Counted from the first letter of the stretch, positions 5,676-63,331 are shown. The stretch: DNA of 64,000 nt from Alphaproteobacteria bacterium (GCA_021296325.1 JAGWAR010000004.1:53126-117125), one strand, 5' to 3'. The notes: generated by a model from the letters alone, not told the origin. Translations and numbers: made by a program.

Positions 5676-7520
5676 TTATACGTTGAGCCGCTTAATCGTG
5701 TCGTTCGATGGCTGCCCGTCCGGCGTCCAGCCGCGCAGCTCGTAATATTCCGGAAGCATCTTGTCGAGCAGCGCCACCAGGCCCTTGCCGACCCCGGTTT
5801 CGGCCGGCGTCTCCAGAAGTCGCTTCGGCAGCGTGTCGTCGGCCGTCGTCAGGCCGGCCTTGTTGTTGAACAGGCGCTCCAGGTTCCACACCCGCTCGCC
5901 AAGTTCCATCATCTTTTCCATCGACCAGTCGCCTTCGCTGTCGGCCTGGACCAGCTGCTGGTACTGATCCAGCGTCCAGGCGAAGTTCGGGAACATGCAA
6001 AGACCGGTCGAATCGACGGCCGAGGTCGTGTCCTGGGCCAGCTTCGTGATCTCCGCTTTGCCTTCCGTCGTCAGCGGGTCGAGCTTGGTGCCGACGCCGA
6101 AGATTTCGACGGCGATCGTGTAGCCCCGCAGGTGGCAGGCGCCGCGGTTGCTGGTCGCGTAGGCTAGGGACATGCCCTGGGCGCCGCGCGGGTCGTAGGC
6201 CGCAAATTCCTGGCCCTTGACGGTCATGGCGACCTCGGGATGGCCGTATTTCTCGCAAAGCAGCTTGGAGCCAAGGCCGAGGTCCTTGCCGAAACCTTCG
6301 CCCTTGCCGGCCAGTTCGACGGCCTCGACGAGGGCTTCCGCCGACCCGAATTTCAGCTTCAGGCCGCCGGTTTCCTTGTCGGTGATGTAGCCCCGCTCGT
6401 AAAGCTCCATGGCGGCGGCCAGCGAGGCGCCGAAGGAGATCGTGTCCATCCCCTGTTCGTTGCAGATGAAGTTCGCGTAGGTCAGCGCCTCGAGATCGTC
6501 GATGCCGCAGTCGCCGCCCATCGCCCAGGAGGACTCGTATTCAAGCCCGCCGGAGGCGTTGTGGTATTGCGGCTTGTCCTTCACGGAGAAATGATTCGGG
6601 TCGATGACGCTGACCCGTCCGCAGGCGATCGTGCAGCCGAAGCAGGCGGAATTGCGCACCATGTTCGTGCGTCCGTCCGTCTCGCGCACCTCGAACATCG
6701 CCTCGCCGCCGATCTTGTCGGCGCCTTCGAACTGGACCTGCTGATGGTTGCGGGTCGGGTAGATGCCGGTGGCGTTGATGACGCTGGTCACGCCTTGGGT
6801 GCCGTACTGGGTGAGGCCGTTCGTAAAGGCGCTTTCCTTGAGGTCCGTCTTCGTGGCCTGGGCGACCTGCATGAACTCGCGGGGGTTCTCGACCTTGACG
6901 CCGGTCGTCCCGCGGACGGCCACCGCCTTCAGGTTCTTCGAGCCCATCACCGTGCCGACGCCGGAACGCCCGGCCGCCCGGTGCAAATCGTTTACGATGC
7001 AGGCGTATTTCGAGCCGGTCTCGCCGGCCACCCCGATCGAGGCGACCCGGATTAACGGGTCCTGATGGGTCTTCTTGATCCACTCCTCCGTCTCCCAGAC
7101 GCTTTTGCCCCAAAGCTTGTCGGCCGGTAGGATACGGACGTCGTCGTCGTTGATCATGAGGTAGACCGGCTCTTTCGCCCGGCCTTCCAGGATCAGCATG
7201 TCGTAGCCCGCGAATTTGAGCTCGGCGCCGAAGAAGCCGCCGGAATTCGAGCACGCGATGGCGCCGGTGAGCGCCCCTTTCGTCACCGCCACGTAGCGGC
7301 CCGAGGTGGACGCGCTGGTGCCGGTCAGCGGGCCGGTGGCCAGGATCAGCTTGTTGTCGGGCGCGATGGGATCGACCTTGGGGTCGATTTCCTCATACAG
7401 GTATTTCGACGCCAGGCCGCGCGAACCGAGGTAAAGCTTCGCCCACTCCATGTTGAGGGGCTCCGTCTCGCAGGTTCCCTTCGTCAGATTGACCCGCAAA
7501 ATCTTCCGATGCCACGTCAT
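5676..7520 (-). CDS. aorB: Tungsten-containing aldehyde:ferredoxin oxidoreductase family catalytic subunit (AorB-like)
   Basis: 614 aa. N-terminus MTWHRKILRVNLTKG...GSRGLASKYLYEE is typical of the AOR family. [4Fe-4S] motif CFGCTIAC (CxxCxxxC), plus NRGACHLRG. Confidence 0.9.
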   Translation of the reverse strand: MTWHRKILRVNLTKGTCETEPLNMEWAKLYLGSRGLASKYLYEEIDPKVDPIAPDNKLILATGPLTGTSASTSGRYVAVTKGALTGAIACSNSGGFFGAELKFAGYDMLILEGRAKEPVYLMINDDDVRILPADKLWGKSVWETEEWIKKTHQDPLIRVASIGVAGETGSKYACIVNDLHRAAGRSGVGTVMGSKNLKAVAVRGTTGVKVENPREFMQVAQATKTDLKESAFTNGLTQYGTQGVTSVINATGIYPTRNHQQVQFEGADKIGGEAMFEVRETDGRTNMVRNSACFGCTIACGRVSVIDPNHFSVKDKPQYHNASGGLEYESSWAMGGDCGIDDLEALTYANFICNEQGMDTISFGASLAAAMELYERGYITDKETGGLKLKFGSAEALVEAVELAGKGEGFGKDLGLGSKLLCEKYGHPEVAMTVKGQEFAAYDPRGAQGMSLAYATSNRGACHLRGYTIAVEIFGVGTKLDPLTTEGKAEITKLAQDTTSAVDSTGLCMFPNFAWTLDQYQQLVQADSEGDWSMEKMMELGERVWNLERLFNNKAGLTTADDTLPKRLLETPAETGVGKGLVALLDKMLPEYYELRGWTPDGQPSNDTIKRLNV

Positions 7521-7538
7521 GGTGTTCTCTCCTGAGGT

Positions 7539-27628: not shown

Positions 27629-27687
27629 CATGGGCGCTCTGCTAGAGTCGTGCCGGGAAGGAAGCAAACGAAAAGGGAGAGGAATCC

Positions 27688-28314
27688 GTGACCACGGTCA
27701 CAATTTTTGGATTCCCGCAAAGCACTTACGTGCGGACCGTTCGCATGACGTGCGAGGAAAAGGGCGTCCCCTACGTCCTGGAGCCCGTCGAGTGGGGGGC
27801 GCCGTCGCACCGTGCCCGCCATCCCTTTCTTCGCATTCCCGCCTTTCAGCACGACGGTTTCACCTTGTACGAATCGCTCGCCATTGCGCGCTACGTGGAC
27901 CGGGCCTTCGCGGGCCCGCCGCTCCAGCCCCAGGAGCCGAAGGAAGCGGGGCGCATGGACCAGTGGATCAGCGCGATCGGCGACTACTTCTACCAGACGA
28001 TGATCCGCGAACTCGTCTTTCCGCGGCTGGTGGCGCCGTCCCGCGGGCAGGCGCCGGACGAGGCGGTGATCGCCAAGGCCGTGCCAAAGGCCGAAGGCCT
28101 GCTCGCCGCCACCGACGCCACCCTTGCCGAGGATGCCTATCTGGCGGGGCCGATGGTCACCCTGGCCGATCTCTACCTGGTGCCGATCCTGTTCTGGCTC
28201 TCGAAGACGCCGGAAGGCGCGCCGCTTCTCGACGCGGCCCCCGCCGTTTCCCGTTGGTACGCGGCGATGGAGCAGCGCCCGTCCTTCGCCGCCACCCTGC
28301 CGCCGGCGCCGTAA
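27688..28314 (+). CDS. Glutathione S-transferase
   Basis: 208 aa, GTG start. N-terminal thioredoxin-like fold (IFGFPQSTYVRTVRMTCEEKGVPY...ESLAIARYVD). Confidence 0.8.
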   Translation: MTTVTIFGFPQSTYVRTVRMTCEEKGVPYVLEPVEWGAPSHRARHPFLRIPAFQHDGFTLYESLAIARYVDRAFAGPPLQPQEPKEAGRMDQWISAIGDYFYQTMIRELVFPRLVAPSRGQAPDEAVIAKAVPKAEGLLAATDATLAEDAYLAGPMVTLADLYLVPILFWLSKTPEGAPLLDAAPAVSRWYAAMEQRPSFAATLPPAP

Positions 28315-28337
28315 CGCCCGTGGACGGAGAATCCCCC

Positions 28338-29591
28338 ATGAAGGAAGCTACCGCCCCCCGCCACGCAGACCTGAAGACGCGCTACCGGGCCGTGCGTGCC
28401 CGCACCGATGCGCTTGCCGCGCGCCTCTCGCCGGAGGACCAGGCCGTCCAGTCGATGCCGGACGCAAGCCCCACGAAATGGCACCTCGCCCATACGACGT
28501 GGTTCTTCGAGGCCTTCCTGCTGCACCCCTTCTTCGAAGGCTACGACGCCTTTCATCCGGACTATGGCTACCTCTTCAACTCCTATTACGAGGCGGCCGG
28601 CGATCGCCACCCGCGGTCCGAACGCGGCCTGCTCACCCGGCCCGGCCTCGACGAGGTCCTGGCCTACCGCGCCCACGTGGACCGGGCGATGGAAGGGCTG
28701 CTCGACGGGGCAGGGACAGACGCCGCCGCCCTGGCCGTGCTCGGCCTCAACCACGAGGAACAGCATCAGGAACTGATCCTCACCGATATCCTGCACCTCT
28801 TTTCCCAAAACCGGTTGAAGCCGGCCTACGCACCTTACCAGCCGGCGCCGGTGCCGGTGCCGCGCGCGCTGGCCTGGACCGATTTTCCGGGCGGCATCAC
28901 CCCCATCGGCGCGGAAGGCTCGGGCTTTGCCTATGACAACGAACGGCCTCGCCACGACGTGCTGCTGCGCCCCTATCGCCTGGCCTCCCGCGCCGTCACG
29001 AATGGCGAGTGGCAGGCCTTCCTCGCCGACGGCGGCTACGAACGGCCCGAACTCTGGCTTTCGGACGGCTGGGCCTGGGTGCGCGCGGAAGGCGTTGCCG
29101 CCCCCCTTTACTGGGAGATGCGCGAAGGCGCGTGGGGGTCGATGACGTTGGCCGGTTTCAAACCCGTCGAGGCGGCAAGCCCGGTCGTCCATGTCAGCTT
29201 CTACGAGGCCGACGCTTTCGCCCGCTGGGCCGGCAAGCGGCTGCCCTCGGAAGCGGAATGGGAGGCCGCCGCCGCCACCGTGCCGCCGCTTGGCAACACG
29301 CTGGGCACGGGCCTCCTGCGTCCCGTCGCGGCGGAGACGGAAGGCCTGGCCCAGCTTTTCGGCGACGTCTGGGAATGGACCCAAAGCGCCTACGCCCCCT
29401 ATCCGGGCTACCGTGCCCCGGCCGGCGCCCTCGGCGAATACAACGGCAAGTTCATGTGCAACCAGCTGGTGTTGCGCGGCGGCTCCTGCGTCACGCCGGA
29501 CGGCCACGTGCGGGCAAGTTACCGCAACTTCTTCTACCCGCATCAGCGCTGGCAGTTCAGCGGGCTTCGTCTCGCGGAGGACGCGGCATGA
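28338..29591 (+). CDS. egtB: Hercynine oxygenase / sulfoxide synthase EgtB
   Basis: 417 aa from ATG 28338. DinB-like N-terminus (KWHLAHTTWFFE), NHEEQHQELI, FGE-sulfatase-like C-terminus (GDVWEWTQS, RGGSC). Confidence 0.9.
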   Translation: MKEATAPRHADLKTRYRAVRARTDALAARLSPEDQAVQSMPDASPTKWHLAHTTWFFEAFLLHPFFEGYDAFHPDYGYLFNSYYEAAGDRHPRSERGLLTRPGLDEVLAYRAHVDRAMEGLLDGAGTDAAALAVLGLNHEEQHQELILTDILHLFSQNRLKPAYAPYQPAPVPVPRALAWTDFPGGITPIGAEGSGFAYDNERPRHDVLLRPYRLASRAVTNGEWQAFLADGGYERPELWLSDGWAWVRAEGVAAPLYWEMREGAWGSMTLAGFKPVEAASPVVHVSFYEADAFARWAGKRLPSEAEWEAAAATVPPLGNTLGTGLLRPVAAETEGLAQLFGDVWEWTQSAYAPYPGYRAPAGALGEYNGKFMCNQLVLRGGSCVTPDGHVRASYRNFFYPHQRWQFSGLRLAEDAA

Positions 29592-30568
29592 CGCCGGCGC
29601 AGGGCAAACTGGACTTGCGCGAAGGCTTCGACGAAGCCGGCGCCATCAAGGACGACTTCCGCCGCGCCGTTCTGGAGGGGCTTGGCCAGCGCCCGAAATG
29701 GATTCCCTGCAAATATCTCTACGACGCCCGCGGCTCGGCCCTGTTCGAGGAAATCTGCAAGCTCGACGAGTACTACCCGACCCGCACCGAACTTGCGCTT
29801 CTGCACCGCCATTCCGACGAGATCGCCTCGCTCGTCGGTCCCAACGCCAACGTCATCGAATTCGGCAGCGGCTCCTCCCGCAAGATCCGCATCCTGCTGG
29901 ATACCTTCGAAAAGCCGGCCGCCTACGTGTCGGTCGACATTTCCAGGGAACATCTGCTGCAGGAAGCGCAGCGCCTTGCGGTCGATTACGACGGCCTTTC
30001 CGTCATCCCGATTCACGCCGACTACACGCAAGGCCTCGAATTTCCCGCCAGCGTCTTCGAAAGCCCGCGCGTCGGTTTCTTTCCGGGCTCGAATATCGGC
30101 AATTTCGCGCCCGCCGACGCGTTCCGCTTCCTTCAGGAACTTTCCCGCTCGATGGGCGAAAAAAGCGGCTTTCTGGTCGGCGTCGACCTGAAGAAGGACG
30201 AACGCATCCTCGCCGCCGCCTACAACGACGCCAGGGGCATCACGGCCGCCTTCAACACGAATTTGCTGGTGCGCATCAACCGCGAGCTCGCCGGCGATTT
30301 CGACCTTGCGGGCTTCGTCCACGAGGCCCCCTACAATGCCGAGAAGGGCCGCATCGAGATGCACCTGAAAAGCGTGCGCCCCCAGACCGTCCGTGTCGAA
30401 GGCCACCGCTTTGCCTTCGCCGAAGGCGAGACGATCCACACCGAAAGTTCCTACAAATACGCCGCCGACGAATTCCAGGCCCTGGCCGAGGACGCCGGCT
30501 GGCGGCCGGTCGCCTGCTGGCAGGACCCGAACCGGCTGTTCAGCCTGCACTATCTGGAAACCGCCTGA
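29588..30568 (+). CDS. egtD: L-histidine N-alpha-methyltransferase EgtD
   Basis: 326 aa. ATGA overlap with egtB. KYLYDARGSALFEEICKLDEYYPTRTE, EFGSGSSRK, TESSYKY. Confidence 0.9.
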   Translation: MTPAQGKLDLREGFDEAGAIKDDFRRAVLEGLGQRPKWIPCKYLYDARGSALFEEICKLDEYYPTRTELALLHRHSDEIASLVGPNANVIEFGSGSSRKIRILLDTFEKPAAYVSVDISREHLLQEAQRLAVDYDGLSVIPIHADYTQGLEFPASVFESPRVGFFPGSNIGNFAPADAFRFLQELSRSMGEKSGFLVGVDLKKDERILAAAYNDARGITAAFNTNLLVRINRELAGDFDLAGFVHEAPYNAEKGRIEMHLKSVRPQTVRVEGHRFAFAEGETIHTESSYKYAADEFQALAEDAGWRPVACWQDPNRLFSLHYLETA

Positions 30569-30574
30569 GGCGGT

Positions 30575-31378
30575 TTAGCGCGCCTTCGGCCGTGCCGTTT
30601 TTTCGCCACCGATGTAAAGCGTGTCGACGCGCTCGTTGTAGAAGGCAAGCCTCCCCTTGATCTCGGGCAGGGCGTGGTGCGGGGTCTCGTAGACCCAGGC
30701 AATGTCCGGGTAGTCCTTGTCCCCGATCCGGGCCGAGTAATAGCCCGCCTCTCCCTTGTAGGGACAGTGGGTTCGCGTCGGTGACGGGCGAAGGCGCTCC
30801 ATGGCGACGTCCGCCTTCGGCAGGTAGTAGCGCACCGGCAGGGTCGTCTCGAACAGGAAGACGGCGTCCTCCGATTCGCCGACGACCTTGCCGCCAAGCT
30901 CGATCCGGACGGTTCGGCGGCTCCGCCGGACGTCGATCCGGCGATAGGGGTGGGCGGGATGCACGAAGACTTCCTCGTCCTCTTCGAACCAGTGGTCCAT
31001 CCGCTCCCAGTCGAAGGCAAGATGCCCCTTGAGGGCGCCGGCCTCCTTCGCCGGGGAGGCAAACCCGTGGGCGGTATCCTGGGCGGCCCGCCCGCCCACG
31101 TTGAGCGACCATAGCGTTACCTCCCCAAGGGAGGAGGCGCGTGTTTTCCGGGACGTTTCTTCGAGGAACTCGGTGCGGATATCCTCGATGGGAAAGTAGT
31201 AGACGGGAATCCGGTTCCCCTCCATCAACAGCAGGGCCCGTGTCGTGTCCGCGATCGTCTCGCCCCCGAAGACGACGCGCACGCGCTTCGGACTCGGCTC
31301 GACGAGAACGCGATGGGCAAGATCCGTCACGGCAGGCACCTCCCGCCCGATTCTGCGAAGAAGTCCCGCCGCAATCAA
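30575..31378 (-). CDS. Tandem DUF427 domain protein
   Basis: 267 aa with two similar halves (VRVVFGGETIADTTRALLLMEGNRIPVYYFP and VRIELGGKVVGESEDAVFLFETTLPVRYYLP). Confidence 0.7.
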   Translation of the reverse strand: MIAAGLLRRIGREVPAVTDLAHRVLVEPSPKRVRVVFGGETIADTTRALLLMEGNRIPVYYFPIEDIRTEFLEETSRKTRASSLGEVTLWSLNVGGRAAQDTAHGFASPAKEAGALKGHLAFDWERMDHWFEEDEEVFVHPAHPYRRIDVRRSRRTVRIELGGKVVGESEDAVFLFETTLPVRYYLPKADVAMERLRPSPTRTHCPYKGEAGYYSARIGDKDYPDIAWVYETPHHALPEIKGRLAFYNERVDTLYIGGEKTARPKAR

Positions 31379-31403: not shown

Positions 31404-32099
31404 TTAAGGGTTCAGGTACAGCCACCAGTGGGTTTCGTTCACGGAATAGACCGGTTGGTAGTGCCGGACGCCGGAGGCCGGGACGACAACGTTGATCTGG
31501 TTGTCGAGAACAAACGCCTGGTCGTTTAGATAGACCGCCAGCACCGCGTGAGGGATGCGCAGGTTCAGATCCTGCAGGACGACGATCCGCAAATCCGCGT
31601 TTGAAAAACCCAGCTCGCGCAGAGACAGAAACTTCGCAATCGCGTAGTCCTCGCAATCGCCCCGCCGGTTCAGATGCTCGTCGGGCACGGCCCAGTAGTC
31701 CGGAACCCCGTAATTGATCGGATCGGTCAGGTAGGAAACGTGGTTGATGTAACGGTTGACTTCCTCAAGCTGGGTGTGCCGGCTCTTGCCGCGCAGCCCC
31801 TCGAGAAACCGGCGCCATTCCTTCAGGTGACAACGGGTGAAGAAGCTTTCCTCGCAGCCGCCCTCGGCCACGTCGCGTCCTTCGAAGTAACGGGCCAGCG
31901 TGCCCGTCCATTTCGGAAAGGCCGAAAGGTTGGACGAACCCTGGGACACCTTGCCGAAAAGTCCGCGCCCGTCCGTCAACGCCGCCATCTCTTCCGAAAG
32001 CGCCGGCGGCGCCCCAAGCGACAGCAGCAGCAACGCCCCGGCGAGGATGTAAACCCACCCGTCTTTTCTTCTCGGCCGGTCCATTTGCCACGGCGTCAT
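31404..32099 (-). CDS. Periplasmic bacterial transglutaminase-like cysteine proteinase (BTLCP, LapG family)
   Basis: 231 aa. Signal peptide (WVYILAGALLLLSLGAPPALS). Catalytic-triad contexts RRGDCEDYAIAKF (Cys), IPHAVLAV (His), FVLDN (Asp). Confidence 0.8.
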   Translation of the reverse strand: MTPWQMDRPRRKDGWVYILAGALLLLSLGAPPALSEEMAALTDGRGLFGKVSQGSSNLSAFPKWTGTLARYFEGRDVAEGGCEESFFTRCHLKEWRRFLEGLRGKSRHTQLEEVNRYINHVSYLTDPINYGVPDYWAVPDEHLNRRGDCEDYAIAKFLSLRELGFSNADLRIVVLQDLNLRIPHAVLAVYLNDQAFVLDNQINVVVPASGVRHYQPVYSVNETHWWLYLNP

Positions 32100-32171
32100 G
32101 CCTGCAACCCTTCATCCTTCCTGGATCGGCTGAAGTCTACGCGCCCGTCTTTAAGGATTTCCTAAGGGGTC

Positions 32172-34340
32172 ATGGTTAACGTCGGCCTTCGAAGGCGCGC
32201 CTTTCGGGGCGTACAGAAGGCAGGCAACCGCATGGCAAAACGCAACTGGCTCGGCTCTTTGCGCCTCGATCTGCGCGTGGCAGGCATCTGGCTCGCGCTG
32301 CTGCTGGCCGGCCTTGCCGGCACCTTCGGCATCCTGCGTTTTGCGGAAACGGCCTATGAACGCGACCTGCGGGTCTGGCAGGATCGCCTGCACCTGGTCG
32401 CCGACGGCCGTTTTACCGCCGTCAATGCGTGGCTCGACGCCAATTACGACCATCTGCGCGAGCTGGCCGACAACGCCTCCCTGCAGCTTTACCTCACCGA
32501 ACTTTCCCGTGCCGGCAGCGACCCCGAACAGAGTCGCGCCCTCGAGGCAAGCCGCGGCTACCTCTACAACCTCCTGCTCGCCACCGCCGGGCGCACGGGG
32601 TTCACGGCCCGGCCGCTGGGTCCCGAGGTGGCGGCGAACGTCCGGCGCGTCGGCGTCGCCGGCCTGGCGCTGCTCGACCGCAACGGCAACGTCCTCGTCG
32701 CCACGCCCGGCATGCCGCCCCTCGAAGGCGCGCTGGCCGCCGCCCTCGCGCGCGTGCCGGCGGGCGGGCGCGGGGTCCTCGATCTGCACCTGAACGCGGC
32801 AGGCCAGCCGGCGCTCGGCTTCGTGCTGCCGGTCTTCGCCGTGCAGGGCGATCCCGGCCCAAGCGCCGAGGTCGGCCGCATCCTGGGCCTCCGCGAAACG
32901 GGCGCGGCCTTCCAGCGCCTCCTCGAACAACCGGGTCTGGCCGAGCCAAGCCTCGAGACGCTGCTCGTGCGCGAGCAGGGGGCCGCGGTTGAATACCTTT
33001 CCGCGCTTCGCGACGGCACCACCGCCATGAAGAAGCGCCTGGCCCGGGACACGCCCGATCTGGCCGCCGCCGTTCTCGCCGCCGCACCCGGCGGCTTCGC
33101 GCTGCTGCGGGACTACCGCGACCGGGAAGTGCTGGCCACGGGGCGCGCTTTTACCGGCGTGCCCTGGACGCTGGTCACCAAGATCGACCGGGACGCGGCG
33201 ATGGCCGACAGCGACGCGCGCTCGAAACGCCTCATCACCGGCTTTTTCCTTGGCCTCGTTCTTGTGCTCGTCGCCTTCGTCGCGGTGTGGCGCCACGGCG
33301 CCTCGCGCCGGGCCGGGGCCGCCGCCCGGAAATACCGGGAACTCGCCGACCGCTTCGAACGCCAGAAGGACTTCCTCCATCTGGTGACGGACAACCAGTC
33401 CGACGCCCTTTACCTGGTGGACGAGGACAACCGTTACCGCTTCGCCAATCAGGCGGCGGCCACGGCGGCGGGCATTGCGCCGAAGGACATGGGGGGCAAG
33501 ACGCTGGCCAGCGTGCTTGGCCCCGCCACCGCCCGCAAGATCGAGGGGCTCAACCGCCACGCCCTCAAGACGGGAACGGCGGAACGCGCGCTGCACCGGA
33601 TCGAGGGGGCGGCGGGCGAAGGGCCGCGCATCTTCGAATCCGTCCACGTCCCGATGCCGGCGACCGAGGACATGGGGCGAAGCGTGCTCGTCGTCGAAAA
33701 GGACATGACGGCGACGATCCTGGCCCAGGAACGCCACGAGGCGACGCTCGGCCAGCTCGTCGCCACCCTGGTTGCGCTGGTCGACCGGCGCGACCCCTTC
33801 GCCGCCAACCATTCCGGGCGCGTCGCCGAGGTGGCCCGCGCCATCGCCGGCGAGATGGGGCTCGACGACATCTCCATCGAGACGGCCGAGACGGCGGGCA
33901 AGCTGATGAATCTCGGCAAGATCCTGGTGCCCGAGGAACTGCTCACCCGCCAGGGCCCGCTCGAGGAAGAGGAGAAGCGCAAGGTCCAGAAAAGCCTTCA
34001 GGCCAGCGCCGACCTCCTCGAAGGCATCGCCTTCGCCGGCCCGGTGACGGCGACGCTGCGCCAGTTGCAGGAACACTGGGACGGCAGCGGCGAACCGGAA
34101 GGCCTGGCCGGCGAGGCCATCCTGATCACCGCCCGCGTTGTCGCGGTGGCCAACGCCTTCGTCGCCATGGCCTCGCCACGGGCCTACCGCGAGGGCATCG
34201 GCTTCGATCAGGCGATCGAGAATTTACGGGAAGGCGAGGGCAGCCGCTTCGACCGCAAGGTCGTCGTGGCGCTGATCAACCATCTGGAAAATCACGGCGG
34301 GCGCGAGCGCTGGGGCAACTTCGCCAAGCTCGCCGGCTAG
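32172..34340 (+). CDS. Membrane receptor: TM, large periplasmic domain, TM, PAS, degenerate HD-GYP domain
   Basis: 722 aa (alternative start ATG 32232). TM1 VAGIWLALLLAGLAGTFGIL, about 290 periplasmic residues, TM2 ITGFFLGLVLVLVAFVAVW. HD-GYP-like C-terminus: NHSGRVAEVARAIAGEMGL, MNLGK in place of HDIGK, EHWDGSGEPEGL in place of HHERWDGSGYP. Confidence 0.8.
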   Translation: MVNVGLRRRAFRGVQKAGNRMAKRNWLGSLRLDLRVAGIWLALLLAGLAGTFGILRFAETAYERDLRVWQDRLHLVADGRFTAVNAWLDANYDHLRELADNASLQLYLTELSRAGSDPEQSRALEASRGYLYNLLLATAGRTGFTARPLGPEVAANVRRVGVAGLALLDRNGNVLVATPGMPPLEGALAAALARVPAGGRGVLDLHLNAAGQPALGFVLPVFAVQGDPGPSAEVGRILGLRETGAAFQRLLEQPGLAEPSLETLLVREQGAAVEYLSALRDGTTAMKKRLARDTPDLAAAVLAAAPGGFALLRDYRDREVLATGRAFTGVPWTLVTKIDRDAAMADSDARSKRLITGFFLGLVLVLVAFVAVWRHGASRRAGAAARKYRELADRFERQKDFLHLVTDNQSDALYLVDEDNRYRFANQAAATAAGIAPKDMGGKTLASVLGPATARKIEGLNRHALKTGTAERALHRIEGAAGEGPRIFESVHVPMPATEDMGRSVLVVEKDMTATILAQERHEATLGQLVATLVALVDRRDPFAANHSGRVAEVARAIAGEMGLDDISIETAETAGKLMNLGKILVPEELLTRQGPLEEEEKRKVQKSLQASADLLEGIAFAGPVTATLRQLQEHWDGSGEPEGLAGEAILITARVVAVANAFVAMASPRAYREGIGFDQAIENLREGEGSRFDRKVVVALINHLENHGGRERWGNFAKLAG

Positions 34341-34761: not shown

Positions 34762-34836
34762 TGGTGCCGCCGGCGTGGATCGAACACGCGACCTCACCCT
34801 TACCAAGGGTGCGCTCTACCACTGAGCTACGGCGGC
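34762..34836 (-). tRNA. tRNA-Thr (anticodon GGU)
   Basis: Hand-folded 75-nt cloverleaf: GCCGCCG TA GCTC AGTGGTA GAGC G CACCC TTGGTAA GGGTG AGGTC GCGTG TTCGATC CACGC CGGCGGC A CCA. Confidence 0.9.
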
Positions 34837-34928: not shown

Positions 34929-35963
34929 TTAGCCGGAAAATCCGAGGCTTGCGCGAAACGCCTTCGCCGCCTTCTTGGCATCCTTGGCGCCGTCCGGCAG
35001 GTCGGGAAGCGCCCCGCAGAAGGCGTCGATCGCCTTGTCGGCCAGGGGCACCCATTTGTCGATCCAGCCCTGAAAAACCTTCTGGTTCGCCGGGTTGTTG
35101 AGGGCAAGCTCGACGAAGCTCGTCGACCACCGCCGGCTGCGCTCCGAATCCCTGAGCGCAGCGTCGGCCAGGAAGTGGACCAGCATGTCGTTGTTGCGCC
35201 GCGCCGAGGCGCCGAACTGGCGGAAGAAGGCCTCGTCGAAGGCCGGCTTCGCAACCAGGTTGATCGCCGTGAAGCTCTCGCCCATGTCATAGGCGACCAG
35301 CGCCTTTTCGAACAGCTCGCGGAACCCCTGCCAGGGGGCATCCCCTTCCCAATGCTTGCGCTCGTCTTGGCCGAAACCCGCGTCCTTGTGGGTCTTGGCA
35401 AGCTCGGCCGTGCGGTAGGCCACCCGCGAAACCCAGCGGAACTCGTCGGCCGTCTGGAACATGGCGCTGTTGGCAATCGTGCTGGAACCGGCCATCTGGG
35501 CGATGTAGGCCGAGCCCATCTGCAGGGCGCAAAGCGGATAGCGCCCCGGCGTATAAAGGCTGGCCAGCACCTTCACCCATTTCGGGTCCAGGTCCACGTC
35601 GTGCTCGGTCTCGCTGAACTCGTCCAGGATGCCGTCCACATAGGTTTCCTGGCCGTCCTGCATCCGGCAATAGGTGCGGTAGATGGTTTCGTCGGGGTCG
35701 CGGTAGGCTTCCCAGTTCTTGTACTGCAGCGGCGATTCGTCGCGGTACTTGTGGTACCACTTCGCCATCGGAATCTCCGACGAAATCTCGAAAGGCTCCT
35801 TCGTTTGCCGCTCGCCGGGGAAATCGTCCCCCGGCGCCAGCGAATCCATCAGCCAGTAGGCCTTCGTCGTGGTGATTTCGTATTCGCTTGGCCGCCGCCG
35901 TTCCTTCGCCAGATGGCTGAAGGTTTTTAGCGGTTTCAATACTTCCGGCGCTTCATCGCTCAT
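34929..35963 (-). CDS. Soluble diiron monooxygenase hydroxylase beta subunit (TmoE/TouE/IsoE-like)
   Basis: 344 aa from ATG 35963 (RBS GGAGGAAG). MSDEAPEVLKPLKTFSHLAKERRRPSEYE... Fifth position in the cluster. Confidence 0.85.
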   Translation of the reverse strand: MSDEAPEVLKPLKTFSHLAKERRRPSEYEITTTKAYWLMDSLAPGDDFPGERQTKEPFEISSEIPMAKWYHKYRDESPLQYKNWEAYRDPDETIYRTYCRMQDGQETYVDGILDEFSETEHDVDLDPKWVKVLASLYTPGRYPLCALQMGSAYIAQMAGSSTIANSAMFQTADEFRWVSRVAYRTAELAKTHKDAGFGQDERKHWEGDAPWQGFRELFEKALVAYDMGESFTAINLVAKPAFDEAFFRQFGASARRNNDMLVHFLADAALRDSERSRRWSTSFVELALNNPANQKVFQGWIDKWVPLADKAIDAFCGALPDLPDGAKDAKKAAKAFRASLGFSG

Positions 35964-35998
35964 CGCTGCTTCCTCCGTAGCCGCATGTGCAAGCGGCC

Positions 35999-36289
35999 TT
36001 ATCTTTTCTTCTCGAAATAGAACCGGGCGTGCTCGGACGAAAGGTCGATCCGGCCGGCGAAGGTGCTCAACACCACCTCCAGCTCCTGCATGACGAAGGG
36101 GCGTCCCAGAATTTTTTCCATCGTCGCGCGGCGGATGATGCAATCGTCGTCCGTCTGGATGCGGATATAGGCCTCGTGGTCCTCGATATCGAATTCCTTG
36201 CCGGGGTTGTCCTCGTCCAACGCCACGATTGCGGCGTCGGCGATTTCCCCCGTCATCAAAACCGGGCCGACCTTGTTGGTCCCTGCCAT
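35999..36289 (-). CDS. Monooxygenase effector/coupling protein (MmoB/DmpM family, TmoD-like)
   Basis: 96 aa, MAGTNKVGPVLMTGEIADAAIVALDEDNPGKEF...RATMEKILGRPF. Size and position fit the family. Confidence 0.8.
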   Translation of the reverse strand: MAGTNKVGPVLMTGEIADAAIVALDEDNPGKEFDIEDHEAYIRIQTDDDCIIRRATMEKILGRPFVMQELEVVLSTFAGRIDLSSEHARFYFEKKR

Positions 36290-36300
36290 CCTGCTTCCTC

Positions 36301-36663
36301 CTATTTATCCGTCGTGATGGCTTCGCCGGTTGCCGCGGCGAAGGTGGGCGTGACCCCTTCGACGTCCACATAGACGTCCTCGCCCTCGATCTTCACTTTA
36401 TATTCGGCAAGCGTGCAGCCGCCGGGGTTGATGCCCTCGCCGGTGTTGCCGTCGAAGGTCCATTCGTGCGCCTTGCAGGTCAGGGTGGTGCCTTCGAATT
36501 TCCCATCCCAAAGCGGCACCTGCTGGTGCGGGCAGATACCCTGAAAGGCGTGAATTTCACCGCCTTCCGGATAGACCAACAGCACCGGCACCTTGCCGAC
36601 GGGACGCATCTCCATGTCGCCCTCCCACAAATCGTCGAGCGAGCACACTTTCGTAAAAGCCAT
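36301..36663 (-). CDS. Rieske [2Fe-2S] ferredoxin component (TmoC-like)
   Basis: 120 aa. Rieske ligand motifs CPHQQ and CKAHEW. Confidence 0.88.
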   Translation of the reverse strand: MAFTKVCSLDDLWEGDMEMRPVGKVPVLLVYPEGGEIHAFQGICPHQQVPLWDGKFEGTTLTCKAHEWTFDGNTGEGINPGGCTLAEYKVKIEGEDVYVDVEGVTPTFAAATGEAITTDK

Positions 36664-36696
36664 GGGCCGTTTCTTCCTTCGTTTCTTTATTGAGGT

Positions 36697-36951
36697 CTAG
36701 TCTTCGTAATAGATCTGGACGGGAGTCATGGGCGCGAGCCCCGAATCCTTTACCTTTACGTCGCGGTCCAGCGGCGTGTCCTTGCCCTGCACGCGCACGC
36801 GAAGCGGCCCCTCCTTGGCAGGCACCCACTTACCGGCGGATTGTTCCGCCGCCGCCGCGGCCACCTCGTCCATCGTGTTTTCCGTGTCGACGGCGAGCAA
36901 ATAGATCAACACCTCGCCCTCGAAGCTCGAAACAAGTGGAAACAGCGCCAT
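36697..36951 (-). CDS. Hydroxylase gamma subunit (TmoB-like)
   Basis: 84 aa, MALFPLVSSFEGEVLIYLLAVDTENTMDEVA...PLRVRVQG. Closely parallels TmoB as I recall it. Confidence 0.8.
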   Translation of the reverse strand: MALFPLVSSFEGEVLIYLLAVDTENTMDEVAAAAAEQSAGKWVPAKEGPLRVRVQGKDTPLDRDVKVKDSGLAPMTPVQIYYED

Positions 36952-37032
36952 GATTGGAATTCCCCCCTCGATGTTCTTTACTTAAACGATCGGAGACCGG
37001 ACGGGTTGCCCGTCCGGTCTCTGTCGTTTTGT

Positions 37033-38538
37033 TTATTGGGCCGCCTTTACGTCGCGGTAGGCGTCGACCCAGGTGTATTTGTCCGCGTCGTCGCCCATCT
37101 CGCCCGGCGCAACCCCCATATAGGCAAGCACGCCCGGTATCGTCATCGGCTGAATCTCGCCGGCGAGGAAACGGTCGATGAGCGTCTTGTGCTCCTGGTA
37201 ACGGTCCGTTTCCGTCTCGAAGATCCACTTACAGGGCTTCGAGCAGAAGTGGTAAAGCCGCCCATTATGCTCAAGGGTGTGGTCGTGCAGCTTGAAGTCC
37301 TTCGTTTTCCGGTTGGGCGGCGCGACGAACGGCAGCTGGCAGATGTTGCAGAGCATCGGCAGCGTCAGCGGCAGCGTCTTCTCGACTTCGCCGTTCTTCA
37401 GGTTCTCGATGACGACGTCCCACGACTTGCCGAAGGTGTCGTTCCAGCCGGGGTATTTCTCCTCCAGCCACTCGCGCTCCGGCGGCGTCACGCCCGCCTT
37501 CGGGTCCCAGAACAGCGTCGGGCGATAGCGCCAAAGGCCCATGTGCAAGCCGTGATGGGCATAGTTCAGCTCATCCAGGAAGATGTCCCAATACCAGGGC
37601 TCGTCGATCCCCATGTCGTCGATCTGGCGCCGGTACTGGGCGATGATCCACTCCTCCATGAATTCCTTGAAGGACTTCTCGCGCTTCTCAAGCGGCGTGA
37701 AGTAATCGATCGCCGGCCCGGTCAGCGTCAGGAACAGCTTCCACGAACGCCAGAACGCATTGTCGAGGACGTATTGGGCCTCGTCCTTGTGGCCGGTCTC
37801 GACCAGGAAGCGGACGTTCGGTGCGCCGATCTGGGCGTGACGGGCCTCGTCCGTCTGGATGCTGGTGACGACGTTCGAAAACGTGTAGTCGCCCATCTTC
37901 GCGGCGTCGGCGGCCATGCTGATGAACTGCACGTTCGTATAGCCGGTCTCCAGGCAGAACCCGTTCATCAGCGTCGAGGAGACGGCGTCGCGGGTAACCA
38001 TGACGTCCTCGATGAAGTGACGCCCCGCAATCGCCGTCCAGTTGTCCGTGTGATAGGTCTTCACCGCCCAGTCCCACTGGCGGTCGTTCTTCAGATATTC
38101 ATGCGGGAAGATGAATTCGAGCTGGCCGTGACGGATTTCGTCGAGAATGCCGAAAGTGCCGGTGTTCCGCATGCCGCCGGCGCGGCCGAAGCGCGCATTG
38201 CGGCAGTTGTAGATGGCGGCGGTGAACTCGACGGAAGCGATGATCCCGTAATGGGATTTGAGAATGGAAAGCCAGCCCCGGGGCGCCTTCTCGACGAAGT
38301 GCGACCGGCCAAGGGCGGCGCGCACCGAATAGACGCCGATGTCCTTGTCCCGCTGGACGCGGACATAGTCCCGATAGGTTGTCTTGTAGGGTTCGTCATA
38401 GGTGTCCCAGACTTCCTGGGGCATGCCGTAAGGGTCGCTCATCTCCGGCGGAAAAAATTCCTCCTCCTTGACGTATTTCGGCGTCCAGGACGTCGTCCGC
38501 GCGAGATCGTACCATTCCGTCCGTTCCAGTTCGGCCAT
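37033..38538 (-). CDS. Soluble diiron monooxygenase hydroxylase alpha subunit (group-2 aromatic/alkene type; TmoA/TouA/IsoA-like)
   Basis: 501 aa. Diiron ligand motifs GILDEIRHGQ and IQTDEARHAQ. C-terminal DRFLAGEIQPMT. Four-Cys motif LCNICQ...HFCSKPCKW. Confidence 0.92.
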   Translation of the reverse strand: MAELERTEWYDLARTTSWTPKYVKEEEFFPPEMSDPYGMPQEVWDTYDEPYKTTYRDYVRVQRDKDIGVYSVRAALGRSHFVEKAPRGWLSILKSHYGIIASVEFTAAIYNCRNARFGRAGGMRNTGTFGILDEIRHGQLEFIFPHEYLKNDRQWDWAVKTYHTDNWTAIAGRHFIEDVMVTRDAVSSTLMNGFCLETGYTNVQFISMAADAAKMGDYTFSNVVTSIQTDEARHAQIGAPNVRFLVETGHKDEAQYVLDNAFWRSWKLFLTLTGPAIDYFTPLEKREKSFKEFMEEWIIAQYRRQIDDMGIDEPWYWDIFLDELNYAHHGLHMGLWRYRPTLFWDPKAGVTPPEREWLEEKYPGWNDTFGKSWDVVIENLKNGEVEKTLPLTLPMLCNICQLPFVAPPNRKTKDFKLHDHTLEHNGRLYHFCSKPCKWIFETETDRYQEHKTLIDRFLAGEIQPMTIPGVLAYMGVAPGEMGDDADKYTWVDAYRDVKAAQ

Positions 38539-58425: not shown

Positions 58426-61400
58426 TCAGGCGGCGGCCAAGGTCTCGCGGATTTTCATGGCGAGCACGCGCTTGCGGTAGGGTTTTTCGACGAGGTCGGT
58501 GCCAAGGTCGCCCCAGTCGAGGGGTTCGGGGAATTCTCCCACATAACCGGACGTCAGCAGCACTTTCAGGCCTTCCCGCCGCGCCCGCGCCTTCTTGGCA
58601 AGCTCGACGCCATTGAGGCCCCGGGGTAGCACGACGTCGGTGAACAGCAGGTCGATGTTGGGCGTCGAGTCGAGCAGCTTGAGCGCGGCGAAAGCATCCT
58701 CGGCCTCGATCACCCGGTAGTTGAGGCCGGTCAGCATCCGTTTCGCCATGCTGCGCATTTCCATGTCGTCCTCGACGACCAGGATCGTCTCGCCGTTCCC
58801 TTCGAGTTCCTGCAATTCGGGCAGCGTGGTTTCAGCCGCCTCGACGCCTTCGGCCGCCGCCGGCAGGTACACCCGGATGGCCGTTCCTTCGCCGAGTGCG
58901 CTTTCGATCCGGATCTGGCCGCCGGACTGCCGGATGAACCCGTAGACCACGCTTAAGCCGAGGCCGCTTCCCTTGCCGACGCCCTTCGTCGTGAAGAAGG
59001 GATCGAAGACGCGGGCCTGGTCGTGTTTCGGAATGCCGATGCCGGTGTCGCGAACGGTCAGGAGGACGTAGCGGCCGGAGGCAGGTTTATCGTCGGGCGC
59101 ATCGGCGGCATCGATGTCGGCGTTTTCGGTCGTCAGGGTGAGCGTGCCGCCGCCCGGCATGGCGTCCTGGGCGTTGAGCGCCAGGTTCAGGATAACGCTT
59201 TCCAGCTGGTTCGGATCGACCATGGCGGGCCAGAGGTCATCGGTGAGGCGGGTTTTGATCTCGATGACCTTGCTGAGGCTGTGTTCGAAGAGTTCCGTCA
59301 TGCCCGAGACCAGCTTGTTCAAATTCGTGGGCAAGGGCTGCAGCGCCTGTTTGCGCGAGAAGGCGAGCAGGCGCTGGGTCAGCGCCGCCCCGCGGTCCGC
59401 CGCCCCGAGCGCGCGGCGCACGAAATTCCGGATGGCCTCGTCCCTGGCGGTTTCGTCCAGCAGCTCCAGATTGCCGATGACGACGCCGAGCAGGTTGTTG
59501 AAGTCATGGGCGATGCCGCCGGTCAGCTGGCCAATCGCTTCCATCTTGGTCGCCTGGCGAAGCTGTTCCTCGGCCTGCTTGAAGGCGGTGATGTCGTGGA
59601 AGCCGGAAAGCAGGGCTTCCTCACCCTCATAGACGACCTTGTGAACGGAGAGCAGGACGCTTATCGGCGTGCCGTCCGCCTTCTTCATCTCGAGCTCGTA
59701 GCCGGTCAAATTGCCGGTTTGTTCGACAAGCTCCTTGATGGTCTCGCGTTCCTTTGGGTTCTGATAGAACTCCATCGTCGGACGGCCGATCAGGCTTTCC
59801 GGGTTCGTATCGAAGGCGGTGCCGACATGGGTGTTAGCGTAGGTAATGCACCCGTCGGAGGTCCGGGCGATGATCAGCGGCAGTGGCGAGCCCTCGACGA
59901 CGGCGCGGAACCGCGCTTCGCTTTCGCGAAGGGCCTTTTCGGCCGCCTTGATCTGGGTCACGTCGTGGACGATGTTCATCACCGCGTCTTCGTTGTCGAA
60001 AGTGATGCGGGCGATCGAGACGACCGCCGAGATCGGCGTGCCGTCCACCTTCTTCAGATTCACCCCGACGTCATGAAGATGGCCTTCCCGTATCAGGCGT
60101 TTCATGATCGTGACGCGGTCGGACGGGTCCTGATAGAAGTCCGGGCTTTTCCATGCGGCGGTCAGTTTGCCGCCGGGCACGTCGTGGAGTGCGGCCACCG
60201 CCGGGTTCGCGTAGAGGAACGTGCCGTCCGAAATCCGGTTGATGGAAATGGGGACGGGGGCGCGTTCGGCGATGTTGCGAAAGCGCGCCTCGCTTTCGCG
60301 AAGCGCCTGCTCCATCTCGGCGCTTTCGGTGATGTCCATGGCGATCGAGCAGATCTCGGTCGGATTGCCGTCGCCGTCCCGAAGCGCGAATTTCGTTCTT
60401 CGGAAGTAGTGGAGTTTGCCGTCCTTCATCCGCTGCACGATGCCCTGTTCGTAGCTTGGCTCGGAGGAGCGCGCGACCTCCATGTCCCGCTCGTGGGTCC
60501 GTTTTGCCGCGTCCTGGGTCAGGGGGCCTTTCGCATAGGCCTCGACCGCCGTCTTGCCGACGAGATCCTCCGAGCGCAGGCCAAGCATGTCCTCGTAGTA
60601 GCGGTTGACCCATTTGTAGCGCCCCTCGAGGTCCTTGAGCGAGACGCAGAACGGCGCGTAATTCAGGATGCCCTGAAGCTGCAGATGGCTGGTTTGCAGG
60701 GCCTTCTCGGCCTCGCGGCGCTCGGTCACGTCGCTGAAGGTGACGACGGCGCCGACCACTTCCCCGTCCTTGCGCAACGGCGTGCTGGTGTATTCGATGG
60801 GAAAGCTGGTGCCGTTCTTGCGCCACAGCACCTCGTCCTTGCGGTGATGGACCGTGCCGTCCATGAAGGCCCGGTACATCGGGCAGGCCTCGGCGGGGTA
60901 GGGGCGGCCGTCCGGGTAGCTGTGGTGGATCAGCGGGTGCAGCTTCTGGCCGATCAGCTCCTCGATGGCGAAACCGGTCATCTCGGCGACGGCGGGGTTG
61001 ACGAAGGTGCCCTGGCCTTCGAGATCCAGTCCGTAAATCCCTTCGCCGACCGATTCGAGGATCAGACGAAACTGCTCTTCATTGGCGCGCAGCGCCTCTT
61101 CGATCTTCTGGCGGTCGGTGATGTCGTGGACGATGGAGCAAAGCTCGCTCGGCTTGCCGTTCTCGTCGAGAATCAGGAACTTCGTGCGCTGAAGGGTGCG
61201 GGTCTGGCCGTCGTGGGGGCATTTGAAGCTTTCCTGGTAGAGGGGCTTGCCGGTCCGCAGCAATTCCTTGTCCGAACTCCGGCTTTCCTCGAGGAAGGCG
61301 GTATCGATGGGGGAAGCCGAGAAGGCGTCTCCCGCTGTTTTCCCGACGATAGCGTCGGGGAGCGGTATGCCGGTCAGGCGCGCGTAGTAACGGTTGACCC

Positions 61401-63069: not shown

Positions 63070-63331
63070 CGACCGCGTTCCGATGGTGGTGCAACGGCAA
63101 GGAACAAGGCCCCAGCTTGGCGCGGGGATGGCTAATTTCCCGTTAACGAAAGGGGTGGTTTTTCAACTTAAGGTTGCAATGCCGCCAGGCCGGCGGGGTC
63201 CGGACGGGCCGGCTTGGCGCATTGCGGCGCTTGGTGTAGGGTGCTCGACGCATGCGCTGAAAGACGCATTGGACGCCGCCGGCACGGGCCTTGAGGCCGG
63301 TGGCGGCGGGCCAACGTTAGGGGGAGACACC

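Follow-up and report, generated by a model that had tools for sequence, protein, structure and literature searches.

A BTLCP protease paired with a degenerate HD-GYP receptor in an uncultured alphaproteobacterium: a somewhat divergent member of the DvhD/DvhG system

Can a periplasmic cysteine protease of the LapG kind be controlled by a membrane receptor that carries a degenerate HD-GYP domain in place of GGDEF and EAL domains? The question is raised by two adjacent, divergently oriented genes in a stretch of 64,000 nucleotides (nt) from an uncultured alphaproteobacterium (GCA_021296325.1, JAGWAR010000004.1:53126-117125; the whole stretch is called the window hereafter), one encoding a protease of the BTLCP family (31404-32099, minus strand) and the other a receptor (32232-34340 from its probable start, plus strand). 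An earlier note on this DNA had proposed that the pair is a Lap-like inside-out switch built on a non-catalytic HD-GYP module, and had taken this architecture to be undescribed. The first part of the proposal gained from the strong homology that we found between the receptor and DvhD in all three modules, whereas the claim of a new architecture does not stand, because the DvhD/DvhG system has already been published (PMC10990149, PMC13090378). The window pair is a somewhat divergent new member of that system, and it is probably a DvhD/DvhG-type module that serves as an HD-GYP-based functional analogue of LapD/LapG.

DvhD and DvhG (DVU1020/DVU1019) are found in Desulfovibrio (Nitratidesulfovibrio) vulgaris Hildenborough. 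Karbelkar et al. (PNAS 2024; PMC10990149) found DvhD to be a membrane protein that has, besides a periplasmic domain, a PAS domain and an HD-GYP domain predicted to be inactive; it binds cyclic diguanylate (c-di-GMP) with an affinity of 322 nM and makes the LapG-like protease DvhG responsive to c-di-GMP once reconstituted in P. fluorescens. Font et al. (Nat Commun 2026; PMC13090378) reported structures of the HD-GYP domain with c-di-GMP (9RBZ), of the PAS/HD-GYP part (9RC0) and of the periplasmic part (9RC2), the latter a dCache domain. In the same work the affinity for c-di-GMP was about 99 nM, 3'3'-cyclic GMP-AMP (3'3'-cGAMP) was also bound, at about 500 nM, the HD-GYP domain was found to carry SQ for HD and MN for HH and not to hydrolyse c-di-GMP, and inside-out signalling analogous to that of LapD was proposed (PMC13090378).

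The window receptor has the layout of DvhD, that is a transmembrane segment, a dCache domain, a second transmembrane segment, a PAS domain, a stalk and a metal-ligand-deficient HD-GYP domain. The two transmembrane segments (about residues 16-38, 32277-32345, and about residues 334-358, 33231-33305; Kyte-Doolittle scan) enclose a periplasmic domain of about 295 amino acids (aa) (32346-33230), identified as dCache by an AlphaFold2 model and Foldseek. On the cytoplasmic side they are followed by a PAS domain (33390-33665; Pfam PAS_4, 5.6e-12, residues 407-498), which aligns with the DvhD PAS domain of 9RC0, and by the degenerate HD-GYP domain (33768-34262; Pfam HD_5, 3.6e-35, residues 533-697). 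Pfam and the hydrophobicity scan thus bear out the order of domains given in the earlier note. No match to HAMP, GGDEF or EAL was found in the receptor with Pfam or NCBIfam.

DvhD was the best match in the PDB for both the cytoplasmic and the periplasmic part of the receptor. As a single sequence, receptor residues 396-710 matched 9RC0 with E=5e-48 and 9RBZ with 6e-38, versus 1e-16 to 1e-23 for catalytic HD-GYP proteins; a profile built from 58 sequences of the receptor family reached 9RC0 at 2.4e-72, versus values up to 1e-35 for catalytic HD-GYP proteins over both searches. For local comparison the DvhD sequence was rebuilt from the HMMER alignment of 9RC0, and identity to the receptor was 36.5% over 312 residues in the PAS/HD-GYP part and 16% in the dCache domain. 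With only about 36 and 16% identity in the two parts, the window receptor falls into a separate paralogous subfamily.

Both open reading frames (ORFs) described earlier are present. The longest receptor ORF spans 32172-34340 on the plus strand and would encode 722 aa, but M21 is the first residue both of the database copy of the receptor (P0001, on a 5.4-kb Logan contig that carries the same genes) and of the homologs, and this gives a protein of 702 aa with a probable start at 32232. Residue numbers of individual sites in the receptor follow the 702-aa scheme, onto which the numbers of the DvhD paper map one-to-one. Depending on which start is taken, the divergent intergenic region is 132 nt (32100-32231) or 72 nt long, so that the earlier figures of 722 aa and 72 nt are right for the longest ORF and too large and too small, respectively, for the probable start. 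The intergenic region had no Rfam match or riboswitch, and a promoter scan found no sigma-70 consensus; from the gene arrangement, promoters would presumably lie within it.

In order to judge the state of the HD-GYP domain, we aligned it to the catalytic proteins PmGH (4MCW) and V-cGAP3 (5Z7C). The alignment left the receptor with one of the seven metal ligands, the first His, in agreement with the eroded signatures reported before. The HD pair is replaced by M559-N560, the middle His by S588, the HH pair by L612-Q613, the Asp by N641 and the GYP Tyr by E621, so that the receptor reads MNLGK for HDIGK and LQEHWDGSGEPEGL for HHE..DG.GYP. Both N560 and N641, at former metal-ligand Asp positions, were present in 58/58 family sequences. 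In comparison with PmGH (4MCW/4MDZ), V-cGAP3 (5Z7C) and PA4781 (4R8Z), the receptor shares the HD-GYP fold, the lysine of the GK motif and the arginine and aromatic residue after the D..D helix, which are part of the nucleotide-binding surface, and it differs from them by the absence of the His/Asp metal ligands save the first His and of the GYP tyrosine. Erosion goes further than in DvhD: the motifs of the window-receptor subfamily are LMNLGK and QLQEHWDGSGxP, as against LSQVGK and QMNEHPDGTGYP in DvhD, and the window receptor has also lost the middle His and the GYP Tyr (Y621 of DvhD).

The domain is thus predicted, from its residues, to be non-catalytic. An active HD-GYP phosphodiesterase that degrades c-di-GMP upon a periplasmic signal would agree with the strong Pfam HD_5 match and with the name 'HD domain-containing phosphohydrolase' given to homologs, and we consider it very unlikely, since M, N, S, L, Q and N, which cannot coordinate metal, stand in place of six of the seven metal ligands and are fixed across 58 homologs, and since DvhD, which keeps more of the ligands, is nevertheless inactive in vitro (PMC13090378). 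The public annotation of the homologs is generic in any case, mostly 'HD domain-containing phosphohydrolase' or 'PAS domain-containing protein', in a family of about 400 database clusters that come mostly from uncultured Alphaproteobacteria (Rhodospirillales-like, Dongiaceae, Stellaceae, Sneathiellales, Hyphomicrobiales).

While the metal ligands were lost, many residues that contact the nucleotide in DvhD were kept. At the canonical site the receptor has L577, K582, M646, R650, Y652 and the equivalent of E668 (listed as E669), and two contacts are changed, Y523 to Phe and the GYP Tyr Y621, a phosphate contact, to Glu; at the bridging site K520 is replaced by Arg, P567 is kept and R569 is replaced by Glu. 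The DvhD mutations reported to impair the response to c-di-GMP are R650A, Y652A/R653A, P567T, M646A and K520E (PMC13090378), and all these positions are kept or conservatively replaced in the receptor. None of the 58 family members departs from R650, R653 and R520; 54 of them have L577, and 57 have an aromatic residue at position 652. The conservation of binding residues together with the loss of the catalytic ligands suggests that the receptor carries a selected, non-catalytic nucleotide-binding site, whose ligand would most likely be c-di-GMP.

The periplasmic domain links the receptor to DvhD by a second, structural route. Its AlphaFold2 model (predicted local distance difference test score, pLDDT, 90.8; predicted template modelling score, pTM, 0.87) had as its best PDB fold match in Foldseek the dCache domain of DvhD, 9RC2 (E=5.1e-11; template modelling scores 0.65/0.75), and the second match, a generic dCache sensor, was about 3,000-fold weaker (1.6e-7), other dCache domains scoring 1e-7 or worse. 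The family sequence profile did not reach 9RC2, and the two are linked by structure comparison only. As modelled, the domain is therefore a dCache domain and not of the LapD/MoxY fold. The LapD output domain, with which a comparison had been suggested, gave no Pfam sequence match to the periplasmic part and was absent among the 50 listed Foldseek matches. The receptor is unrelated to LapD: it lacks HAMP, GGDEF and EAL domains, and its dCache domain stands where LapD has the LapD/MoxY output domain and the GWxQ tryptophan loop.

The N-terminal helix of the model is broken into two parts (H4-42 and H45-56), as is helix alpha1 of DvhD (PMC13090378), and a conserved ENASLQLY motif lies at the break. 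The most conserved periplasmic motif of the receptor is found on these N-terminal helices, outside the usual ligand pocket. In the AlphaFold 3 model of DvhD-DvhG the second part of the broken helix, alpha1', is at the interface with DvhG (PMC13090378). Because the receptor motif sits at the helix break in the model and alpha1' is the second part of the broken helix of DvhD, the ENASLQLY region and alpha1' may be the same element.

As a rule dCache domains sense ligands, and among the matches listed, nearly all fold matches of the receptor domain beyond 9RC2 were ligand-binding sensor domains of chemoreceptors or kinases. This raises the alternative that the receptor works from the outside in, with a small molecule bound by the dCache domain in the periplasm, the HD-GYP domain as an output or protein-interaction module, and the protease either regulated transcriptionally only or making or removing the signal. 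Such a sensor would suit a relative of 67% identity (L031), in which the receptor gene has no protease gene and adjoins a chemotaxis cluster and a gene for a response regulator with an EAL domain, and a dCache ligand could not be excluded for DvhD either (PMC13090378). It is hard, however, to explain on these terms why nucleotide contacts should be kept and catalytic residues lost if no nucleotide is bound; moreover, the closest structural relative of the receptor domain is the dCache domain of DvhD itself, and the most conserved periplasmic motif lies away from the usual ligand pocket. We therefore regard an outside-in sensor as unlikely. The two modes can also coexist, because LapD is described as signalling bidirectionally (PMC5231407).

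The partner gene (31404-32099, minus strand; stop codon at 31404-31406) encodes a BTLCP protease of the LapG-DvhG type, 231 aa long and predicted to be periplasmic, as identified by Pfam, by comparison with PDB sequences and by AlphaFold2/Foldseek. Peptidase_C93/BTLCP matched it in Pfam with E=1.5e-19, and the sequence matched LapG of Legionella (4FGO, E=7e-21) and of P. fluorescens (4U65_E, E=4.5e-17). The NCBIfam model for LapG (NF045674) scored 99.5 bits (E=1.5e-28), below the equivalog cut-off of 320 bits, and the protease is therefore a LapG homolog and not a LapG equivalog. Its AlphaFold2 model (pLDDT 79.8) had LapG structures as the six best PDB fold matches (E about 1e-10). Compared with LapG of P. 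fluorescens and Legionella pneumophila (4U65, 4FGO), the protease has 30% identity, the same fold, the same triad and the same D-C-E context.

The motifs on which the earlier note had based an intact active site (GDCEDYAIAKF, HAVLAV, VLDN) were recovered, and in the 4FGO/4U65 alignments GDCEDYA, PHAVLAV and VLDN coincide with the Cys, His and Asp of the LapG active site. This places the triad at Cys149 (31653-31655), His184 (31548-31550) and Asp199 (31503-31505), within 31503-31655 on the minus strand, and the three residues are invariant in 50/50 homologs and in all 22 window-type copies of the fetched loci. Cys149 is flanked by Asp148 and Glu150, and the window-type copies share D148, E150, D151 and the D-Y-W / P-x-E loop, which may include the ligands of a LapG-like calcium site next to the active site. 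A Cys82/Cys90 pair is also conserved among the homologs. The N-terminus (residues 1-35; 31995-32099) has a basic n-region (RPRRKD), a hydrophobic core at residues 15-35, which is the sole hydrophobic segment of the protein in a Kyte-Doolittle scan, and the sequence PPALS|EE; by inspection it is signal-peptide-like, of the Sec type, rather than a membrane anchor. Like DvhG, the partner of the receptor belongs to the BTLCP proteases and has the C-H-D triad; its putative signal peptide would be a further likeness to most DvhG orthologs.

If the two genes belong together, their adjacency should not be confined to the window. We scanned one genome per species and collected 28 loci with full-length or partial relatives of the receptor, mostly labelled Alphaproteobacteria and 38-63% identical in the best aligned segment, 21 of which had enough upstream sequence to judge the pairing and are called informative. 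A BTLCP gene of opposite orientation lay at a distance of roughly 140-560 bp from the receptor gene in 17 of the 21, which span 38-58% receptor identity and several alphaproteobacterial orders; the same divergent adjacency was present in two loci beyond the 28-locus scan (L030 and L032). The adjacency put forward in the earlier note is thus conserved in relatives, and its recurrence in 17/21 informative loci argues that the pairing is not due to chance. Coincidental adjacency of functionally unrelated genes could appeal to four relatives that have the receptor and no adjacent protease, but it is scarcely credible given the same divergent arrangement across several orders and given that the homologous DvhD and DvhG are functionally coupled in experiments (PMC10990149). 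In locus L003 two BTLCP genes lie about 3 kb from the receptor. Tandem BTLCP genes upstream of the receptor were seen there (L003:5685-7014, a Dongiaceae metagenome-assembled genome, MAG) and in an alphaproteobacterial MAG (L020:7927-9439), with C-H-D intact in 4/4 copies.

The relatives also connect the pair to secretion. A LapB-type type I secretion system (T1SS) was encoded near the window-type receptor in 11 of the 28 scan loci, or in 12/32 when S. aquimaris (L032) is included. The system lay within 1-8 kb in nine scan loci of the Sneathiella clade, in S. aquimaris and in L010 and L026, the last two belonging to another clade and having the receptor about 3 kb from an ABC/HlyD(/OEP) cluster. 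The Sneathiella-clade cluster comprises genes for an outer-membrane OEP protein, an ATP-binding cassette (ABC) transporter with an N-terminal C39-like domain and an HlyD-family protein, and a second, co-directional BTLCP-receptor pair; the OEP gene is present in most, not all, T1SS-linked loci. Linkage of the pair to a LapB-type T1SS in relatives is a feature shared with DvhD/DvhG. In two unrelated MAGs, genes for a putative 2-oxoglutarate-Fe(II) oxygenase and for a gamma-glutamyltranspeptidase form a conserved insertion between the receptor and the T1SS (L010:5747-8296 and L026:12108-14624).

By analogy with DvhD/DvhG we infer nucleotide binding, the direction of signalling, the contact between receptor and protease and the identity of the substrate, the last of which is not encoded in the window. 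The receptor would be an inner-membrane dimer in which the dead HD-GYP domain senses a cyclic dinucleotide, most likely c-di-GMP. Binding of the nucleotide would alter the HD-GYP/stalk dimer; the dCache domain would receive this change by way of PAS and the membrane helices and would then hold or inhibit the secreted Cys-His-Asp BTLCP protease. When the nucleotide falls, the freed protease would cut the N-terminal retention module of a type-I-secreted adhesin, and the adhesin would be released from the cell. The logic, a cytoplasmic nucleotide receptor controlling a periplasmic protease, is that of LapD/LapG in P. fluorescens and CdgS9/LapG in L. pneumophila (PMC3032545, PMC3032553, PMC4359373).

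Several observations weigh against this switch, both at the nucleotide site and in the gene neighbourhood. The DvhD phosphate contact Y621 is Glu in the receptor and variable or deleted across the family, and the bridging-site R569 is Glu as well. The receptor itself has K582 and the guanine-specifying E668, but neither these two nor position 621 are conserved across the family; this variation at Y621, K582 and E668 means that ligand affinity, and even ligand identity, could differ from those of DvhD. The way in which DvhD restrains the protease is described as unknown (PMC13090378). The receptor gene has no adjacent BTLCP gene in three informative loci (L001, L005 and L026) and in L031. The 64-kb window holds no T1SS, adhesin, GGDEF or EAL genes, and no T1SS was found within 10 kb of the pair in L030, a close relative of 70% identity that is syntenic with the window (Sel1, the divergent BTLCP-receptor pair, a diiron monooxygenase cluster and dCTP deaminase). 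On the absence of T1SS and adhesin genes our searches of the window agreed with the earlier note: the Sneathiella T1SS proteins gave generic weak ABC matches only in tblastn, and a motif scan of the window ORFs for GGDEF, EAL and PilZ gave nothing credible. As a difference from DvhD/DvhG, the window pair does not adjoin any T1SS or adhesin gene. A giant adhesin was not found in any fetched locus flank, including 10 kb beyond the S. aquimaris operon.

These absences bear on the nature of the substrate. The same switch might act on something other than a giant T1SS adhesin, with the module detached from the secretion genes and the protease cleaving another periplasmic or envelope protein. The lack of T1SS and adhesin genes near the pair in the window and in the syntenic L030 would fit this, as would the paralogous nature of the window-type subfamily, whose members in Sneathiella occur together with a canonical DvhDG-type pair. 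We consider a different substrate improbable nonetheless. The genes of Lap-type substrates frequently lie at a distance from those of the regulators. For DvhG a further substrate, DVU1545, has been named (PMC13090378), and S. aquimaris, too, has no adhesin gene within 10 kb. In Sneathiella, L010 and L026 the window-type receptor lies beside a LapB-type T1SS.

The second pair of Sneathiella shows how the window pair relates to DvhD proper. Its receptor, REC2, has LSQIGK and QMYE..DGTGYP and keeps the middle His, which is the signature of DvhD, and similarity to DvhD decreases from REC2 (186 bits) over the window-type REC1 (154 bits) to the window receptor (136 bits). The window-type and REC2/DvhD-type families are homologous from end to end (651 columns, 24% identity, E=1e-72 in hhalign) and have in common the periplasmic motif N..(L/F)QL(Y/F).TE. 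As judged from these sequences, the window pair is a paralogous, more eroded 'MN-type' branch (LMNLGK) of the DvhD family, distinct from DvhD proper (LSQVGK). The two types coexist in Sneathiella, and whereas the DvhD-type pair there is co-directional and part of the T1SS operon, the window genes are divergent. When Sneathiella REC2 served as the query of a homolog search, DvhD itself was missed owing to the word-seeding limit of the search. Each Sneathiella species is represented once among the 78 DvhD homologs listed in the literature, which also include Kiloniella, Fodinicurvata, Pelagibius, Denitrobaculum and Oceanibacterium (PMC13090378), so that alphaproteobacterial DvhDG systems are already on record. 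The Sneathiella entry in that list is most probably the REC2 type, and our literature search found no separate description of the MN-type branch.

The protease partners of the two Sneathiella receptors differ as well. In the operon BTLCP, the partner of REC2, the nucleophilic Cys is replaced by Ser (GGDSEDF) in 10/10 genomes, with His and Asp kept (L008:2120-2833, minus strand, and equivalents in L009, L011, L012, L013, L017, L018, L021, L022 and L032), whereas the neighbouring window-type BTLCP keeps its Cys. The operon copy may either use Ser as its nucleophile or be a pseudo-protease and, given the Ser-for-Cys replacement, the MN-type pair could supply the only competent protease in Sneathiella. 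Alternatively, the two Sneathiella receptors could combine two signals, for example c-di-GMP and 3'3'-cGAMP, or a periplasmic dCache ligand. Whether the MN-type pair, with LMNLGK, no GYP Tyr, a Cys-intact BTLCP and divergent genes, is a functionally distinct and not redundant second DvhD-like class, free-standing in the window lineage and possibly acting on another substrate, is a tentative idea that we regard as possible and rather doubtful.

Some other genes of the window were noted as well. Upstream of the protease gene, 25 nt away and on the same strand, lies a gene for a tandem DUF427 protein (30575-31378, minus strand), and next to it a likely ergothioneine pair (27630-30568, plus strand), the EgtD-like part of which is assigned from a Methyltransf_33 (PF10017) match on the identical gene of L029 and the EgtB-like part from motifs only; this ergothioneine/DUF427 neighbourhood is not conserved in L030. 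A tRNA-Thr gene (GGT; 34762-34836, minus strand; ARAGORN, and Rfam tRNA with 71.7 bits) is found about 420 nt downstream of the receptor gene. It is followed by a soluble diiron monooxygenase cluster (34929-38538, minus strand) with a phenol/toluene hydroxylase-like alpha subunit, a Rieske ferredoxin, and MmoB/DmpM-like and TmoB-like proteins, the identity of which we assigned from synteny with L030 (Pfam Phenol_Hydrox, Rieske, MmoB_DmpM and TmoB there) and from ORF sizes. Farther away, an aldehyde:ferredoxin oxidoreductase gene (5679-7538, minus strand) had very strong Pfam AFOR_N and AFOR_C matches; the product presumably belongs to a tungsten-dependent family. Such an enzyme is unusual in an aerobic-looking alphaproteobacterial gene set. 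The largest ORF of the window (58429-63162, minus strand; 1,578 aa) was considered as a candidate adhesin and rejected, being a hybrid histidine kinase that combines HisKA/HATPase and a receiver domain with six or more PAS domains; its N-terminus gave a sub-threshold match to a 'diguanylate cyclase-like sensor', with no stretch passing alone.

For the family, the comparison carries a lesson on annotation, namely that homologs named 'HD domain-containing phosphohydrolase' are probably cyclic-dinucleotide receptors and not phosphodiesterases. Two smaller leads come with it, the existence of two paralogous subtypes of degenerate HD-GYP receptor and the Cys-to-Ser protease in the Sneathiella T1SS operon. 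The host of the window pair is an uncultured alphaproteobacterium and not, as for DvhD, a sulfate reducer, and the finding extends the DvhDG-type adhesin-release switch, of which this pair would be a member, well beyond the sulfate reducers.

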